Shown: positions 18,426 to 48,349 of the stretch, one piece after another | Layout of the letters: the number at the start of each line of letters is the position of its first letter | Position numbering within the stretch: the stretch's first letter is position 1 | From: Escherichia phage EC.P1 | Sequence record: PQ657772.1 | Direction: 5' to 3' (one strand) | Length of the DNA: 64,000 nucleotides | Notes under the pieces: model-generated | What the model saw: the letters and a program-made list of their open reading frames with translations, nothing else | What the model was told of the DNA's origin: nothing | Databases searched by the model: none | Made by a program: the position numbers and the translations under genes

Positions 18426-18926
18426 TTAGGTCACAGCTTTGTATTTCTCCATTGCTTCGGTGATATTCAATACTGCTTGCGGTACGTCACTTTTGTTGTA
18501 TGCAGTGGTTAGTTTTTCCATGTTATTGAGAAGACTTAGAAACAATGGAAGTACTTCTGCATTGTCACTGAAGTTACAATCATTGACAGTACTCAATTGG
18601 AATAACTCACCTGCATCAACATTGAGTGTGTTGTATTCTTTAACAATGTTTTCTTCAGTATTGAAGATGTAGAATACAGTCCCCATGTGGTGTAAGTATA
18701 CACCAGTATCATTCTGAATATGACATGGGGTGATTACAATTGCTGTGTTATCAATATTATTTACTATTGTCAAACGCAGACTATGTAACCCAAAGATTAC
18801 AGTACAATCCTTTGTGCTGTGTTGGATCTGGTCACTAGTAAAGGAAGACCCACTAGAAGTTTTAGACCCATTTAGTATTTCTTTGATAATTTTAAATGAA
18901 TACTTCATCGAATTAGTTAAAAGCAT
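18426..18926 (-). CDS. hypothetical protein, paralog family A
   Basis: Motif GELFQLSTV. Confidence 0.55.
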   Translation of the reverse strand: MLLTNSMKYSFKIIKEILNGSKTSSGSSFTSDQIQHSTKDCTVIFGLHSLRLTIVNNIDNTAIVITPCHIQNDTGVYLHHMGTVFYIFNTEENIVKEYNTLNVDAGELFQLSTVNDCNFSDNAEVLPLFLSLLNNMEKLTTAYNKSDVPQAVLNITEAMEKYKAVT

Positions 18927-19326
18927 GAACTTTACCTTTAAGTAAATTAATTAATGTTCGCATAGATTCAGTACTGACAGTCCCAAAATCAACACCTAAG
19001 CACTCGTATTGAAAGAACTCAATAGAATCAATTGAGTCCAAAGGAATCTCAACAACCTGATTCCCTATACCAGACATAGTAACATTGCTTTTATTAATCG
19101 TCAAGAAGTTTTTTGAATAAGTATTAAATTTTAGTGAAATCGCATCGGGGTGCTTTGTAACAATGCAGTACTGGGAGCCATACACATATAGTACTTTACT
19201 TTCACTAAGATCTGTTTTAAAAAAATGAATCCCATTGAAGTATTTCTCATTGGCTCCCATCGCCGCGATTAGTTCATCTGTTGTTGTTAACCTTGTTTCG
19301 TTCTTCGTTAAACTGTTGAAAAGCAT
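18913..19326 (-). CDS. hypothetical protein, possible family A
   Basis: Weak motif IEFFQYECL. Confidence 0.5.
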   Translation of the reverse strand: MLFNSLTKNETRLTTTDELIAAMGANEKYFNGIHFFKTDLSESKVLYVYGSQYCIVTKHPDAISLKFNTYSKNFLTINKSNVTMSGIGNQVVEIPLDSIDSIEFFQYECLGVDFGTVSTESMRTLINLLKGKVHAFN

Positions 19327-19747
19327 AGAATACTACCTTAACCATTTGTAGTGTTTCAGACATTACTTCTGATGAAAATTCAACATCATTGAATTTCAGC
19401 ATAGTGTTCTGTGTAAAGAAAGTTGCTTCTAAGTCTTCTAGATTGAAGGGTTCATCAAACAAATTAGTACTGAACATGTCAGTCTTCTTCTTGTATGTGA
19501 ACAAGAATTTGGAATTATAACGAAGAACTATTTCATCTTTATTGACCAGAATGCGTGCAATGTTCTGACGTGCTAATGTGGTAATGTTTAAATTGAACAC
19601 GTTCTTGCGTGTTTCTGTGATATCAACAAAATACCCATCTCCCTGATGGATATTACATCGTACATCCAACCCTTTCTGTACTGTATTGAACAGTGCATCT
19701 TGAATAAAATAATTTGCTGTATCGATGTTTCCTAAAATGTCTAACAT
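19274..19747 (-). CDS. hypothetical protein, possible family A
   Basis: Weak motif ATFFTQNTM. Confidence 0.5.
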   Translation of the reverse strand: MLDILGNIDTANYFIQDALFNTVQKGLDVRCNIHQGDGYFVDITETRKNVFNLNITTLARQNIARILVNKDEIVLRYNSKFLFTYKKKTDMFSTNLFDEPFNLEDLEATFFTQNTMLKFNDVEFSSEVMSETLQMVKVVFYAFQQFNEERNKVNNNR

Positions 19748-20259
19748 AACTTCTCCTTGATTGCTGTCATATTTAGAAGAAATTCTTCAAGCAATTCCTC
19801 TGTAACATACTCAACATACCAGAATATCACAATATCTTTTGAAAGTCGAGTATTCTTAAAAATATCTACTAACTCTTTGTAGTACTCAAGATCATATACA
19901 TCTTTTATAATTAGTGAGTACTGAAATAGTGATTCTTCAGTTAACTTAAATTCTGGATATAGTAAGTCATTAAATTCTAATGATTCTGATTGTACTTTTA
20001 TTTTAGTGAAGTCATTTGTTAATCCACCATTACATCCATATAATGCAGCGTAATTCACGAACTTGGCTTTTGGATTAAAATCAAGAACAGTTTCACCATT
20101 ATATGACAATCGGTGGAACGCCGTGAACTTTGTAATTTGCCACGGTTGCTTAATATCTAAGTCATTTATGTCTTTATTATTGTACATAAGAACAGTGAAT
20201 ATTTCAGCAATCTTCAATAATAATTTAGTACGTGCTAGTACTGTCATAGGTTCAATCAT
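19741..20259 (-). CDS. hypothetical protein, paralog family A
   Basis: Motif EESLFQYSLI. Confidence 0.55.
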   Translation of the reverse strand: MIEPMTVLARTKLLLKIAEIFTVLMYNNKDINDLDIKQPWQITKFTAFHRLSYNGETVLDFNPKAKFVNYAALYGCNGGLTNDFTKIKVQSESLEFNDLLYPEFKLTEESLFQYSLIIKDVYDLEYYKELVDIFKNTRLSKDIVIFWYVEYVTEELLEEFLLNMTAIKEKLC

Positions 20260-20672
20260 TATACACCTTCATATTCATCAAGGAAATCTTCGATGATCAT
20301 TTCTGCATCATCCATATGCATAGCATCAACTTCAACAATGCGAACCTTAGACGTATCCCAAATCATATAGCTAGGAACTGTATCTGGTTCGTAATCGTTT
20401 TTGTACTGAACTGCATCATAGCCGTTAATTTCGCAGTACTCAATCACTCCACGCCATTCGTCGTCACTGCCCATATCCGTCCACAGAAGCACGTTATCAA
20501 CATCAACTTCTAAGGTATGTAAGTATACTGTATCAGCGTCAACAACGTTCAGTGGGCTTCTCAGCTTGCGTAATGCAGCTTCTAAAGCACTGTGTTTTCC
20601 ACCCATATGAAGGCCACCATACGGGATATAAAAGTTATCAATTTTTACAGTACTCGCATGATACAGTTTCAT
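20259..20672 (-). CDS. hypothetical acidic protein
   Basis: Track ORF 137 aa; Asp/Glu-rich C-terminal half. Confidence 0.5.
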   Translation of the reverse strand: MKLYHASTVKIDNFYIPYGGLHMGGKHSALEAALRKLRSPLNVVDADTVYLHTLEVDVDNVLLWTDMGSDDEWRGVIEYCEINGYDAVQYKNDYEPDTVPSYMIWDTSKVRIVEVDAMHMDDAEMIIEDFLDEYEGV

Positions 20673-20681
20673 TATTCATTC

Positions 20682-21266
20682 CTATTTCAGTACTTTGACC
20701 AGGGCTTTAACCGCTGTTTCAAGTTGTGCAAAGTCGTTGATTGTAAGATAATGAATACCCAATGTACTCATTTCTGAATCTATTTTACTATACAAATCGA
20801 ACATGTCAAGTAGATATTGATATGTATATGACTCCGATGACACACATGATTCTTGAAATAGACGTTCTTCCATATCATTTACTACTTCATCATTTACGTC
20901 TCGAATCACACCATCTTTGTATGTGTAGTAAATCTCATCCCATTCATCTGATAAGCGGAATAGTAAAGGTTTACCATTAAACATCTCAAGGTCATATGCA
21001 TTGACTTCACTCAATAACATATCATCAGGATCAGGTGTGAAATCGAATTGAGCGAGTGAAGAACCATCATAATCCTTAAGGAATACACCAATAGCATTCA
21101 ATTTAACTTCGCCATAATTGCCATTCTTGAACTTTACACGAATATTAATATCAATGTTTTGAACAGTATCATCATCTTGGAATTGATAATCAATTTTATA
21201 CTTTTCCCAAAGTTTTTTAATATCTTTAAAGTACTTAATTTTACTTTCTATTTCTTTAAAGTTCAT
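20682..21266 (-). CDS. hypothetical protein, paralog family A
   Basis: Motif ERLFQESCV. Confidence 0.55.
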   Translation of the reverse strand: MNFKEIESKIKYFKDIKKLWEKYKIDYQFQDDDTVQNIDINIRVKFKNGNYGEVKLNAIGVFLKDYDGSSLAQFDFTPDPDDMLLSEVNAYDLEMFNGKPLLFRLSDEWDEIYYTYKDGVIRDVNDEVVNDMEERLFQESCVSSESYTYQYLLDMFDLYSKIDSEMSTLGIHYLTINDFAQLETAVKALVKVLK

Positions 21267-47041: not shown

Positions 47042-47100
47042 AATTTTTACCCCATGATTAACGTACAGGTACTATATCAGTAATGAAAAGTACTGTCAAG

Positions 47101-47475
47101 CTAGTATTGCACTGTTCTAATGAAAGTACCTTTACTCATGGATTTAAGCTTATGAACCTCTTCCTGCATACCCTTAATTAACCCTAAAGGTATAGGTAAA
47201 TCATGTACTAAGCTGTACTGAAAGTATTCTTCTTCAGATAAAGTACTAACATCTGGAATGCCAATTTTAGTTAGATAATCTTGATGTGTTGACCAATAAA
47301 TTATATCTTCAGTACTATTGTACTCCCCATATACTGAACAATATTGATGAATATCTTTCCTGTATCCTTGAGCAATAAAGAACTTATCTACTGCATTACC
47401 AGCATTAATAGAATTCACTTCGATTGTCACAGTACTTGAGCTTGTTTTTCCTTTACTATGCATATTAATCCCCAA
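47101..47475 (-). CDS. hypothetical protein, paralog family A
   Basis: Motif LSEEEYFQYSLV. Confidence 0.55.
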   Translation of the reverse strand: MGINMHSKGKTSSSTVTIEVNSINAGNAVDKFFIAQGYRKDIHQYCSVYGEYNSTEDIIYWSTHQDYLTKIGIPDVSTLSEEEYFQYSLVHDLPIPLGLIKGMQEEVHKLKSMSKGTFIRTVQY

Positions 47476-47651
47476 ATTAGATATCGAACACTATCAGCTT
47501 GATAGTTAGTTCCTACTGTGTGTTTTAATATTAACTCATCTTTCAGTACTGAACATTCTGCATTAGATATAGGAAGAGAATTAATTCTTTGAATTTCTGG
47601 TCGCAAAATACCGCGAAGCTTGCGGTAATCTTTGTATGATAATATTTTCAT
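47427..47651 (-). CDS. small protein, paralog family B
   Basis: Motif VGTNYQADSV. Confidence 0.5.
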   Translation of the reverse strand: MKILSYKDYRKLRGILRPEIQRINSLPISNAECSVLKDELILKHTVGTNYQADSVRYLIWGLICIVKEKQAQVL

Positions 47652-47654
47652 TGT

Positions 47655-47996
47655 TTAGTACTCAACGATGTGTTCTTCATAACCATTAAACTCCGGTTTA
47701 GTTTCTTTCATTAGGACTACCATTTTATGTACTAATGGCATAGGAAATTCTAAATCCCATACTAATGATTCTTGAAAGTATTCTTCTTCAGATAAAGTAC
47801 TTAAATCTTTAATATCAACGTGCTTGTATATTTTCTTTTCGTAATTAAGAAATGATATATATAAATCATTAACATAAGAATCATAAGTAATTGTGAATGG
47901 CTTACCCTTGTAGTCCATTACATCTTTACATAGACTGCATTTGATATATGTATGTTCTTCTGAACTGTATACATTGAGTTGTATATTAGTTTTCAT
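47655..47996 (-). CDS. hypothetical protein, paralog family A
   Basis: Motif LSEEEYFQESLV; near-duplicate of 48011..48349. Confidence 0.6.
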   Translation of the reverse strand: MKTNIQLNVYSSEEHTYIKCSLCKDVMDYKGKPFTITYDSYVNDLYISFLNYEKKIYKHVDIKDLSTLSEEEYFQESLVWDLEFPMPLVHKMVVLMKETKPEFNGYEEHIVEY

Positions 47997-48010
47997 AGTT
48001 ACCTTATATA

Positions 48011-48349
48011 TTAATACTCAATAATGTGTTCTTCATAACCATTAGGTACAGGTTTAGTTTCTTTCATTAGTACTATCATCTTATGTACTAATGGCATAGG
48101 AAACTCCAAATCCCATACTAATGATTCTTGAAAGTATTCCTCTTCAGATAAAGTACTTAAATCTTCAATGTCAATGTGTTCGTATATGTTATATTTGTAA
48201 TCAGCAAAAGATATATAAAAACCTCTTGTATTATCATAAGTAAGTGCAAATGGCTTACCTTTGTAGTCCATTACAGAGTTACATGTATGGCATTTGATGT
48301 ATGTACTTGCAAATGATTTATATACCTTGAGTTTTATATTAGTTTTCAT
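48011..48349 (-). CDS. hypothetical protein, paralog family A
   Basis: Motif LSEEEYFQESLV; near-duplicate of 47655..47996. Confidence 0.6.
   Translation of the reverse strand: MKTNIKLKVYKSFASTYIKCHTCNSVMDYKGKPFALTYDNTRGFYISFADYKYNIYEHIDIEDLSTLSEEEYFQESLVWDLEFPMPLVHKMIVLMKETKPVPNGYEEHIIEY

Follow-up and report, generated by a model that had tools for sequence, protein, structure and literature searches.

Array and family membership

The window analysed here is a 64,000-nucleotide stretch of Escherichia phage EC.P1 (sequence record PQ657772.1), and its interval 18426-48349 carries a dense array of small genes whose products share a short motif, EExYFQxS. An earlier note on this DNA had described a paralog superfamily of about 50 genes there. 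The window is 97.5% identical to Escherichia phage Ecwhy_1 (over 10 kb) and matches 35 phage records, all of which are Asteriusvirus-type jumbo coliphages or Salmonella phages of the PBECO4/121Q/phAPEC6/fEgEco12 group. It can be taken as part of a ~350-kb Asteriusvirus (Rak2-like) jumbo coliphage genome. All of the substantial open reading frames (ORFs) of the window are on the minus strand, and its GC content ranges from ~29 to 40% with the minimum across the arrays.

BLASTP at E<1e-3 linked the genes only into clusters of 17, 13 and 3. An iterated profile hidden Markov model (HMM) built from the 13-member cluster grew from 28 to 39, 41 and finally 42 members and then converged. All of the 42 members lie within 18426-48349 on the minus strand (Table 1). 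When the profile was rebuilt without the query, 41 of them were recovered at E<=2e-4 and the weakest, 33724-34038, at 1.5e-3. The convergence of the profile and the leave-one-out test bear out the claim of a genuine paralog superfamily at the protein level. The members are ~100-210 amino acids (aa) long and together span 19.4 kb, which is 65% of the interval. The claim that the rest of each protein is highly diverged also held, as the mean column identity in a MAFFT alignment of the 42 members is 13%. The invariant columns are F and Q, together with a near-invariant initiator Met.

The count of about 50 stood in part. Forty-two members are firm, and the earlier figure was reached because ~6–8 ORFs with eroded motifs had been added to them. 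These belong to the 25 other ORFs of the interval and carry motif-like strings at the correct relative position with weak profile support (ORFs starting at 18913, 22986, 23489, 24482, 32305, 38797 and 39866; strings such as IEFFQYECL, ENEFQNNTL, AYIFQRSVL and EQCFQLSCT). Two outliers outside the array had been proposed as well, and one of them was retained. The ORF at 5124-5813 is probably a distant family member according to BLAST, the family HMM (E=5e-4) and hhalign (E=0.003, probability 9.7%, over 39 columns). The ORF at 14869-15717 is not a member. It is absent from the relaxed HMM list, its hhalign probability is 0.6% with only the 11-residue string aligning, and that string occupies residues 74-84 of the 282-aa protein, within its N-terminal third.

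Motif conservation and predicted fold

The family motif can be written as [ST]-E-E-x-[YLF]-F-Q-x-S-[LT]-[VI]-[YHW]-[DN], with a nearly invariant core of S-E-E-x-Y-F-Q-x-S-L-V, and its median distance from the C-terminus is 51 residues in the 42 members. The pattern E.[YFLMHW][FYLM]Q occurs in 31 ORFs of the minus strand versus a single ORF of the plus strand, the latter outside 18426-48349. Chance expectation was obtained from residue shuffles of the 156 predicted proteins of the window. It was 3.1+/-1.7 for this pattern against 31 observed, 0.02 for [ED][ED].[YFLMHW]FQ.[ST] against 22, and 0.07 for FQ.S[LTC][VIL] against 34. The strings quoted in the earlier note were all located, namely EEYYFQNSTL in 34035-34478, EEMYFQGSCI in 28551-29033, GELFQESLV in 30110-30448 and EEEFFQMQLV in 42813-43124. 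Frames and starts pose no problem for the motif, as the same coding sequences (CDSs) are annotated in fEgEco12 and PBECO4. Synonymous encoding, which had been claimed too, is extensive. The Gln is encoded by CAA in 16 members and CAG in 26, the Phe by TTT in 25 and TTC in 17, and the conserved Ser by AGY in 20 and TCN in 14. Since the two Ser codon families are not interconvertible by a single synonymous change, the motif is conserved at the protein level, and a DNA-level repeat was ruled out as its source.

Column statistics were taken from 145 diverse representative sequences with a mean column identity of 7%. Position 113 is F in 100% and position 114 is Q in 98% of them, S occupies position 116 in 86%, and E occupies positions 109 and 110 in 80% each. 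The flanking columns are more permissive: T 38%, S 34% and D 12% at position 108; Y 38%, L 29% and F 9% at 112; L 55% and T 41% at 117; V 48%, I 27% and L 17% at 118; Y 42%, H 18% and W 11% at 119; and D 45%, S 11% and N 11% at 120. Positions 111 and 115 are variable.

A long form and a short form were modelled with AlphaFold2. For the long form, 34456-34944, the window's own 42-sequence alignment was the input, and a predicted local distance difference test (pLDDT) value of 89 and a predicted template modelling score (pTM) of 0.83 were obtained. The model opens with an N-terminal helix (3-22) and continues with seven beta-strands (28-97). After a short helix (99-103) come the motif helix (109-115, EEYYFQN) and a five-residue turn (STVYN), which leads into an amphipathic helix (121-135), a strand (141-144) and a final helix. 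The short form, 48011-48349 (112 aa), was modelled at a pLDDT of 83; in it, five strands precede the motif helix (69-77), which is followed by a helix (85-97) and a terminal strand. Over the motif, averages of pLDDT in 10-residue blocks reach 97-98 in the long-form model and ~95 in that of the short form. Because the two models share these elements, the common core is predicted to be a 5–7-stranded antiparallel beta-sheet followed by the motif helix, the turn, the amphipathic helix and a terminal beta-strand, and the N-terminal helix would be an addition peculiar to the long forms. The motif is placed within the folded core of both models, not in an exposed or disordered linker, and would form the junction of the sheet and the C-terminal helix. 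The earlier guess of a shared short linear motif is disfavoured by this result, as the motif is a confident helix and turn with secondary structure on both sides.

The roles of single positions can be proposed from the models. Positions 108 (S/T) and 120 (D/N/S), each of which precedes a predicted helix, resemble helix N-caps, and positions 112, 113 and 117-119 would pack in the core. E110, Q114 and S116 probably form a conserved polar ridge that is partly exposed, lying on a helical wheel beside the variable positions 111 and 115. Other conserved columns are the aromatic or aliphatic strand residues Y74, I75, Y77, I83 and I85, a leucine ladder in helix 121-135 and F141, which in the model look like a typical hydrophobic core. 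The motif may thus be regarded as a keystone of the fold because it joins the sheet to the C-terminal helix and contributes both N-caps and core residues. The invariant polar residues may be a structural keystone alone or also a common docking site.

The resemblance of the motif to the cleavage site of tobacco etch virus (TEV) and other potyviral NIa proteases had been called probably coincidental in the earlier note, and the present data agree. The likeness consists of two copies, EEMYFQ/G and EEGYFQ/G, which fit ExxYxQ/(G,S), and the L-S-E-E stretch also recalls the hydrophobic-x-E rule of T4 gp21. However, only these 2 of the 42 copies match the strict TEV consensus. In the family the P3 residue is Tyr in only 38% and Leu in 29-35%, Leu, Phe or Trp together being as frequent there as Tyr, and the conserved Ser occupies P2' and not P1'. 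The motif is moreover structured in both models instead of lying in a linker. An NIa/3C-like protease was not seen in the window, where the Pfam scans covered a subset of the proteins. Prohead processing appears irrelevant because no member's gene number is found in the reported virion proteome table of phAPEC6. It is therefore hardly conceivable that the motif is a site at which a protease of the TEV/NIa type or the phage prohead type processes each protein.

The strict conservation of polar residues also bears on two functional alternatives. The main rival to the interpretation favoured in the Discussion is an adaptor family, in which the motif docks one common hub such as an AAA+ protease, a chaperone or RNA polymerase, and the variable beta-sheet recruits different targets, much as in the F-box/PRANC or BTB multigene families of large eukaryotic viruses. 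E, E, Q and S are kept beyond the usual needs of a fold while the rest of the protein is free to vary, and the placement of E110 and Q114 beside variable positions suggests partial exposure. In addition, two copies that have lost the Q and kept the F are under purifying selection, with a ratio of nonsynonymous to synonymous divergence (dN/dS, omega) of 0.24 for 25066 (LLFNANL) and 0.22 for 30803 (AMFTNDI), which suggests that the F is structural and the Q functional. On the other hand, helix capping fully accounts for S/T108 and D/N120, and core packing for the hydrophobic residues. The motif is in the most confident and presumably well-packed part of the model, and no partner was identified. 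This adaptor model is considered rather unlikely. The second alternative is a family of small enzymes, in which E-E...Q...S would be a catalytic or metal/ligand site and the substrates would differ among members, for example as hydrolases or sponges of host signalling nucleotides. Invariant acidic and amide residues beside aromatics could form a ligand pocket, and phage sponges and small anti-defence enzymes have comparable sizes. An enzymatic role is nevertheless quite improbable; it is followed, with decreasing likelihood, by the filler explanation considered below and then by the protease site.

Evolution of the array

Selection was evaluated by Nei-Gojobori counts between the window genes and their syntenic PBECO4 orthologs, pooled over genes. 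The pooled omega of the family is 0.28 (dN 0.150, dS 0.537) versus 0.29 in adjacent non-family genes. By segment, omega is 0.30 in the N-terminal helix, 0.30 in the beta-region, 0.19 in the motif, 0.28 in the following helix and 0.22 in the C-terminus. Therefore, the members are constrained protein-coding genes, and the dN/dS check that the earlier note had put forward gives purifying selection that is strongest in the motif. The divergence of the orthologs from PBECO4 is mosaic, with identities of 40-98% and dS from 0.03 to >2 at adjacent syntenic positions. This pattern suggests that alleles in the array have often been replaced through recombination instead of diverging in a clock-like manner.

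Sixteen of the 42 members have their best paralog in the adjacent gene, versus 1.9 expected, and the BLAST matches to the nearest paralog are mostly 25-55% and partial. The pairs 42466/42813, 43114/43697 and 47655/48011 each correspond to one PBECO4 gene, and two members have no full-length PBECO4 ortholog. Tandem duplication is evidently ongoing, in what reads from these comparisons as a birth-and-death pattern. All-vs-all BLAST also found an adjacent paralog pair within the array at 24482-25066 and 25066-25629.

Such duplicates could be neutral or near-neutral filler for an enlarged capsid with no specific function. Duplication-driven genome expansion has been proposed by Hua et al. (PMC5646251), and tandem duplication is clear here. 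However, the omega of the family, which matches that of the adjacent non-family genes, and the lower omega of its motif are those of genes under constraint. The ORFs have stayed intact at a mean column identity of 13%, the motif was kept through switches of Ser codon family, and both the family and its array arrangement recur in Erwinia phage Hallingskeid, which has a different host genus, and in metagenomic contigs. Filler is thus a very improbable explanation.

Genome position, promoter-like sites and protein properties

The termini of fEgEco12 have been experimentally confirmed, with a direct terminal repeat (DTR) of 20,993 bp (PMC13070987). Alignment of the window to the fEgEco12 record places the DTR boundary at window position ~54,847, and the right ~9 kb of the window (54,850-64,000) falls within the DTR. 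The EExYFQxS array begins ~6.5 kb inside the left terminal repeat boundary, and its transcription runs away from the boundary. In the order of transcription, with falling coordinates, the DTR interior (64.0-54.85 kb) is followed by a family of tiny genes (54.7-48.3 kb), the EExYFQxS array (48.3-18.4 kb) and a mixed region. Near ~54,847 the GC fraction climbs from ~0.31 to 0.38 and the AT-skew shifts; a sigma70-like site is found at 54807-54780, just inside the unique region.

The array is compact. The interval 18426-48349 is 96% coding with just 10 gaps of >40 nt, and 46 of its 66 gene junctions overlap, the 4-nt ATGA type being the commonest, which indicates translational coupling. Shine-Dalgarno-like sequences precede 23 of the 42 members versus 10% of random positions. 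A sigma70-like site on the coding strand is found in 9 of the 10 gaps of >40 nt, and all of the 12 sigma70-like matches scoring >=11/12 are on the coding strand. Six sites in gaps are listed in Table 1, the best being the perfect one at 29543-29572. The terminator-like hairpins 25699-25718 and 41112-41133 are each directly upstream of a strong sigma70-like promoter, and the former scores on both strands. Taken together, the promoter-like sites, the location of the array directly inside the DTR and its direction, which leads away from the terminus, fit early transcription by the host RNA polymerase.

The members appear to be soluble and mostly acidic proteins. Their median isoelectric point (pI) is 4.8 and their median net charge is -8 with an extreme of -31, and a transmembrane-like hydrophobic segment is absent in 40 of the 42. 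Member P0008 is gp442c of phAPEC6, and the published virion proteome table of that phage, obtained by mass spectrometry, has no gene numbered gp36x-gp47x.

Known-family searches and distribution

The earlier note had not recognised the family, and neither did the databases. Pfam gave no match of the members below E=0.02 and none above the gathering score, NCBIfam gave no match, and PADLOC gave only a single sub-threshold match, to NsnC at E=0.0045. The family profile searched against all PDB sequences found nothing below E=0.38. All of the 42 members match PHROGs, spread over 24 clusters that are all of 'unknown function' (phrog_9317, 12674, 13866, 15629, 19795 and others). Literature searches returned no description of the EExYFQxS family or motif, which are not described in the CBB paper, the Iyer/Aravind comparative survey, the fEgEco12 paper or a 2026 review. 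The RaK2 paper states that ~10% of RaK2 proteins are paralogues. The family is new as a recognised entity, and nothing of known structure or function is detectably related to it. Tandem expansion of small early genes, the phenomenon that it represents, is already known in jumbo phages.

A profile search of 1.84 billion representative proteins gave 162 clusters at E<=1e-3. One of them, P0112, is a 773-aa tandem-repeat protein and was rejected as a spurious match. A loose form of the motif ([ED], 1–2 residues, hydrophobic or aromatic, [FYLMW]-Q) is present in 190 of 200 related sequences, a few of these matches falling elsewhere than in the true motif. Thirty-three representatives have no BLAST similarity to any window protein, and metagenomic contigs of up to 249 kb are the source of the ten representatives whose origin was looked up. 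One representative maps to Erwinia phage Hallingskeid (366 kb), where the last 24 kb of the linear record hold at least 21 members by the family HMM, and these carry motifs of the TEEYYFQESLV type. Within Hallingskeid 341739-366158, seven short-form members (108-119 aa) stand in a row at the extreme record end, with long forms after them. The two forms thus seem to occupy separate parts of an array, as is partly the case in the window at 45.2-48.3 kb.

A scan of JGI/ENA metagenomes with the back-translated motif gave 82 loci, of which 6 hold true members and 5 of these 6 hold at least two adjacent members. The same scan of IMG/VR gave two matches only, both by chance. A second database search with a broader profile gave no further named taxa, and tblastn lacked the sensitivity needed, whether the query was the HMM consensus or a single distant member. 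The Foldseek matches in BFVD were all to uncharacterised proteins, which belong to 121Q, RaK2, GAP32, Serratia phage BF and Yersinia phages fHe-Yen9-03/-04; those of RaK2, GAP32, Serratia BF and Yersinia fHe-Yen9 are candidate members by structure. The family appears confined to Rak2-like jumbo phages of Enterobacterales, usually as an array. One 103-aa member, P0025, stands in the database under 'hypothetical protein, partial [Actinomadura adrarensis]' and comes from a contig of 563 bp, most likely as phage contamination of that assembly.

Discussion

We propose, with slightly more confidence than doubt, that the array is a tandemly duplicated, lineage-specific superfamily of small soluble early non-virion proteins for host takeover or counter-defence. 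The host sigma70 RNA polymerase would transcribe the array early, from the side of the genome that enters first, just inside the left DTR. Each paralog would then bind a different host component through its diversified surfaces. The motif would be the fold keystone and possibly a shared interaction site, while the beta-sheet and the termini have diverged almost beyond recognition. A function of this kind, which the earlier note had guessed at, is consistent with the DTR-adjacent position, the sigma70-like promoters, the absence from the phAPEC6 virion table and the neighbouring Dam, Rnl1 and Pnkp genes.

Several points weigh against this proposal. The analysis turned up neither a binding partner nor a phenotype nor a homolog of known function. 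In an arms-race repertoire, positive selection on the variable regions might be anticipated, and no bulk positive selection was seen there by pooled pairwise dN/dS, a method insensitive to such selection. The early timing draws on consensus promoter matches, sigma70-like matches are overall no more numerous than in shuffled sequence, and no expression data or transcriptome for this clade was found in the searchable literature. The non-virion argument depends on gene numbering in one related phage, and the argument from the neighbouring Dam, Rnl1 and Pnkp genes is weak. As for the side chains, the burial or exposure of the E, Q and S residues is deduced solely from the secondary structure and the conservation pattern.

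A combination of host takeover with the adaptor idea can also be imagined. The array would then be a combinatorial adaptor or decoy library, in which one invariant docking surface (E-E...F-Q.S), by which all paralogs attach to a single host or phage hub, is joined to ~40–50 different beta-sheets, each capturing a different host defence or housekeeping protein. We hold this extension to be unlikely, a shade more so than the plain adaptor family. If it were true, the library would correspond, in a virus of bacteria, to the F-box/PRANC and MGF families of giant eukaryotic viruses, on a fold without a solved relative.

The host-takeover proposal can be compared with several known systems. The host-takeover module in the terminal redundancy of SPO1, the pre-early first-step-transfer genes of T5 and the hyperplastic early regions of T4 are genome-end clusters of unrelated small genes. 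They resemble the present array in being dense same-strand sets of small, mostly non-essential genes of unknown function near the first-entering terminus, with several host-type promoters. The difference is that the genes there are unrelated, whereas at least 42 paralogs of one domain are found here, for which early timing is deduced. The multigene families MGF360/505 of African swine fever virus (ASFV) and the ankyrin-PRANC and BTB-Kelch families of poxviruses are terminal tandem paralog arrays that act in host range and immune evasion. Location near the termini, birth-and-death evolution and copy-number differences are common to those arrays and this one, and some of those proteins combine a docking motif with variable surfaces. 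However, there is no kinship in sequence or fold, the host here is bacterial, and the function here is a proposal. Zhang, Iyer and Aravind reportedly described in 2011 polyimmunity loci, in which tandem SUKH or Imm-type immunity proteins act against polymorphic toxins. Those loci likewise line up small alpha+beta paralogs that have diverged strongly, each of which is presumed to neutralise its own effector. Bacillus phage G has a zinc-ribbon family of ~35 copies (Iyer et al.). There, too, one small domain has been amplified tens of times in tandem in a genome of >300 kb, which has been read as genome expansion through duplication, but the EExYFQxS domain is distinct and undescribed, and its family is far more diverged.

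About 83% of the genes in these 350-kb coliphages are without assigned function (phAPEC6 paper, PMC7247149). At least 42 of them, covering 19.4 kb, belong here to one family, whose unity was hidden by its division among 24 PHROGs in clustering. In each genome, dozens of 'hypothetical proteins' are thereby reduced to one testable problem, for which the invariant F-Q plus the E-E and S offer a handle for mutagenesis, and attention is drawn to a predicted fold without a solved relative. If the proposal of early takeover or counter-defence is true, the array would be among the largest single-family anti-host repertoires known in a phage, and it would help to explain the strain-to-strain variation in this region among Asteriusvirus phages that are therapeutic candidates.

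Table 1. Features of the window. For family members, the score is the leave-one-out HMM E-value; all of them are on the minus strand.
Feature	Sequence	Position	Strand	Score	Remark
Member	DAGELFQLSTVND	18426..18926	-	9.5e-07	
Member	TEESLFQYSLII	19741..20259	-	2.8e-07	
Member	MEERLFQESCVS	20682..21266	-	6.3e-05	
Member	SEEQHFQLSTLH	21855..22406	-	1.3e-04	
Member	GEEQYFQLSTIH	22418..22999	-	1.7e-04	
Member	VDEELFQMSTVI	23917..24495	-	7.2e-09	
Member	TDEVQFQLSTIC	25717..26301	-	1e-07	True start probably internal; GenBank relatives annotate a 519-nt CDS
Member	LESVMFQHMLIH	26228..26794	-	9e-05	
Member	SEESYFQNSLIY	27317..27811	-	5.4e-13	One of two basic members (pI 9.2)
Member	TPDELFQYSLVL	27799..28212	-	3.4e-05	
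Member, short form	SEEELFQESTVN	28196..28558	-	8.8e-12	
Member	TEEMYFQGSCIH	28551..29033	-	2.8e-12	One of only two strict TEV-consensus copies
Member	SEEEFFQYSTLY	29030..29509	-	1.9e-10	
Member	NEENYFQQSLLN	29569..30159	-	1.1e-10	
Member, short form	DTGELFQESLVL	30110..30448	-	3.1e-08	
Member, short form	QEDELFQESLVW	30438..30797	-	5.3e-10	
Member	TEENIFQNSLMW	31396..31992	-	5.9e-06	
Member	TEEGYFQGSTVY	32838..33284	-	2.6e-14	Other strict TEV-consensus copy
Member	SEDAYFQYSTIY	33281..33724	-	6.1e-10	No full-length PBECO4 ortholog
Member, short form	HETFLFQESLVW	33724..34038	-	1.5e-03	Weakest; in BLAST cluster of 17
Member	SEEYYFQNSTLY	34035..34478	-	9.9e-19	
Member	SEEYYFQNSTVY	34456..34944	-	4.6e-26	Long form modelled with AlphaFold2
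Member	TEEYYFQQSLIF	34947..35387	-	3.1e-18	
Member	SEEFYFQQNTIY	35384..35854	-	7.1e-13	
Member	SEEYYFQQSTVY	35856..36347	-	2.7e-25	
Member, short form	DDGELFQAALVF	36357..36716	-	5.1e-12	
Member, short form	DTAELFQESLVF	36713..37072	-	2.6e-13	
Member	DDAALFQESLVF	37069..37530	-	3.2e-11	
Member	SEEMLFQYKTVH	38232..38858	-	2.9e-06	
Member	DEAAYFQQSLID	39138..39776	-	3.2e-08	
Member	SAEEYFQYSTLH	40471..41046	-	6e-08	
Member	TEEWWFQQNLVH	41121..41618	-	2.3e-07	
Member	SEEAFFQESLFT	41925..42494	-	9.8e-06	
Member, short form	SEEEFFQMQCVL	42466..42816	-	1.8e-09	Recent tandem duplicate of 42813-43124, 57% identical
Member, short form	SEEEFFQMQLVV	42813..43124	-	1.7e-08	
Member	CSAELFQKSLLY	43114..43620	-	2.5e-10	Tandem duplicate of 43697-44257
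Member	NEAEVFQTSLIY	43697..44257	-	3.1e-11	
Member, short form	QEEELFQYSLIY	45247..45558	-	1.3e-08	
Member, short form	SEEEEFQYLLVH	46473..46823	-	1.9e-08	No full-length PBECO4 ortholog
Member, short form	SEEEYFQYSLVH	47101..47475	-	1.6e-13	
Member, short form	SEEEYFQESLVW	47655..47996	-	1.6e-14	Recent tandem duplicate of 48011-48349, 73% identical
Member, short form	SEEEYFQESLVW	48011..48349	-	2.6e-14	Short form modelled with AlphaFold2
Possible eroded member		22986..23492	-	HMM E=9e-4; hhalign E=0.003 over 38 columns	Motif ENEFQNNTL
Possible eroded member		38797..39141	-	HMM E=6e-3; hhalign E=0.002	Motif AARFQYETA
Distant candidate outside array		5124..5813	-		Motif SEEEHFQLMMM; in BLAST cluster of 17
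Sigma70-like promoter, perfect		29543..29572	-	12/12	TTGACA-18-TATAAT with extended-10 TG; 59-nt gap upstream of 29030-29509
Sigma70-like promoter		25657..25685	-	11/12 with TG	87-nt gap; beside hairpin 25699-25718
Sigma70-like promoter		41074..41102	-	11/12 with TG	74-nt gap; preceded by hairpin 41112-41133
Sigma70-like promoter		47071..47099	-	11/12 with TG	59-nt gap upstream of 46796-47041
Sigma70-like promoter		46401..46429	-	10/12 with TG	108-nt gap
Sigma70-like promoter		39791..39819	-	10/12 with TG	89-nt gap
Dam-family N6-adenine methyltransferase		13101-13625	-		Same strand as array; downstream mixed region
Cytidylyltransferase-like protein		12571-13104	-		Same strand; downstream of array; weak support
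T4-type RNA ligase 1 (Rnl1)		3720-4862	-		Same strand; downstream of array
Polynucleotide kinase/phosphatase (Pnkp)		1965-2897	-		Same strand; downstream of array
LGTNYQE family		48339-54749			Contiguous
LGTNYQE family		31940-32131			
LGTNYQE family		32109-32327			
LGTNYQE family		44967-45218			
LGTNYQE family		45555-46364			
LGTNYQE family		47427-47651			

Neighbouring genes

Downstream of the array, the genes for Pnkp, Rnl1, the cytidylyltransferase-like protein and Dam encode enzymes of counter-defence type. In fEgEco12, 12571-13104 and 13101-13625 are labelled 'ribonucleotide reductase A' and 'type I R-M methyltransferase subunit' (R-M, restriction-modification), and at least the former label looks wrong. 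A non-member gene, 20259-20672, is embedded in the array. It is 89% identical to its PBECO4 counterpart with an omega of 0.18, its product begins MKLYHAS...GGLHMGG, and it matches phrog_11632 (unknown function); no match was found in PDB, Pfam or NCBIfam.

The tiny genes between the DTR boundary and the EExYFQxS array form a second tandem paralog family. It comprises 32–33 very small proteins of 63-94 aa, except for one member that is 269 aa long with an N-terminal copy of the domain. They share the motif L-G-T-[ND]-[YF]-Q-E and an N-terminal 'MKiLt..EY', and their median pairwise identity is 25%. The family starts ~100 bp inside the DTR boundary and matches phrog_4148 (unknown function), with no Pfam match. 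Kinship with the EExYFQxS family was ruled out by profile-profile comparison (hhalign probability 0.2%). Hua et al. proposed in 2017 tandem duplication as a route of jumbo-genome expansion and cited an array of >30 genes in 121Q, for which no coordinates are given (PMC5646251). By its count of >30, that array is most likely the LGTNYQE family, despite a pairwise identity of only ~25%. Other small paralog groups found by all-vs-all BLAST are a 4-member family at 9950-11353 and a pair within the DTR, 57264-57581 and 58657-58935.

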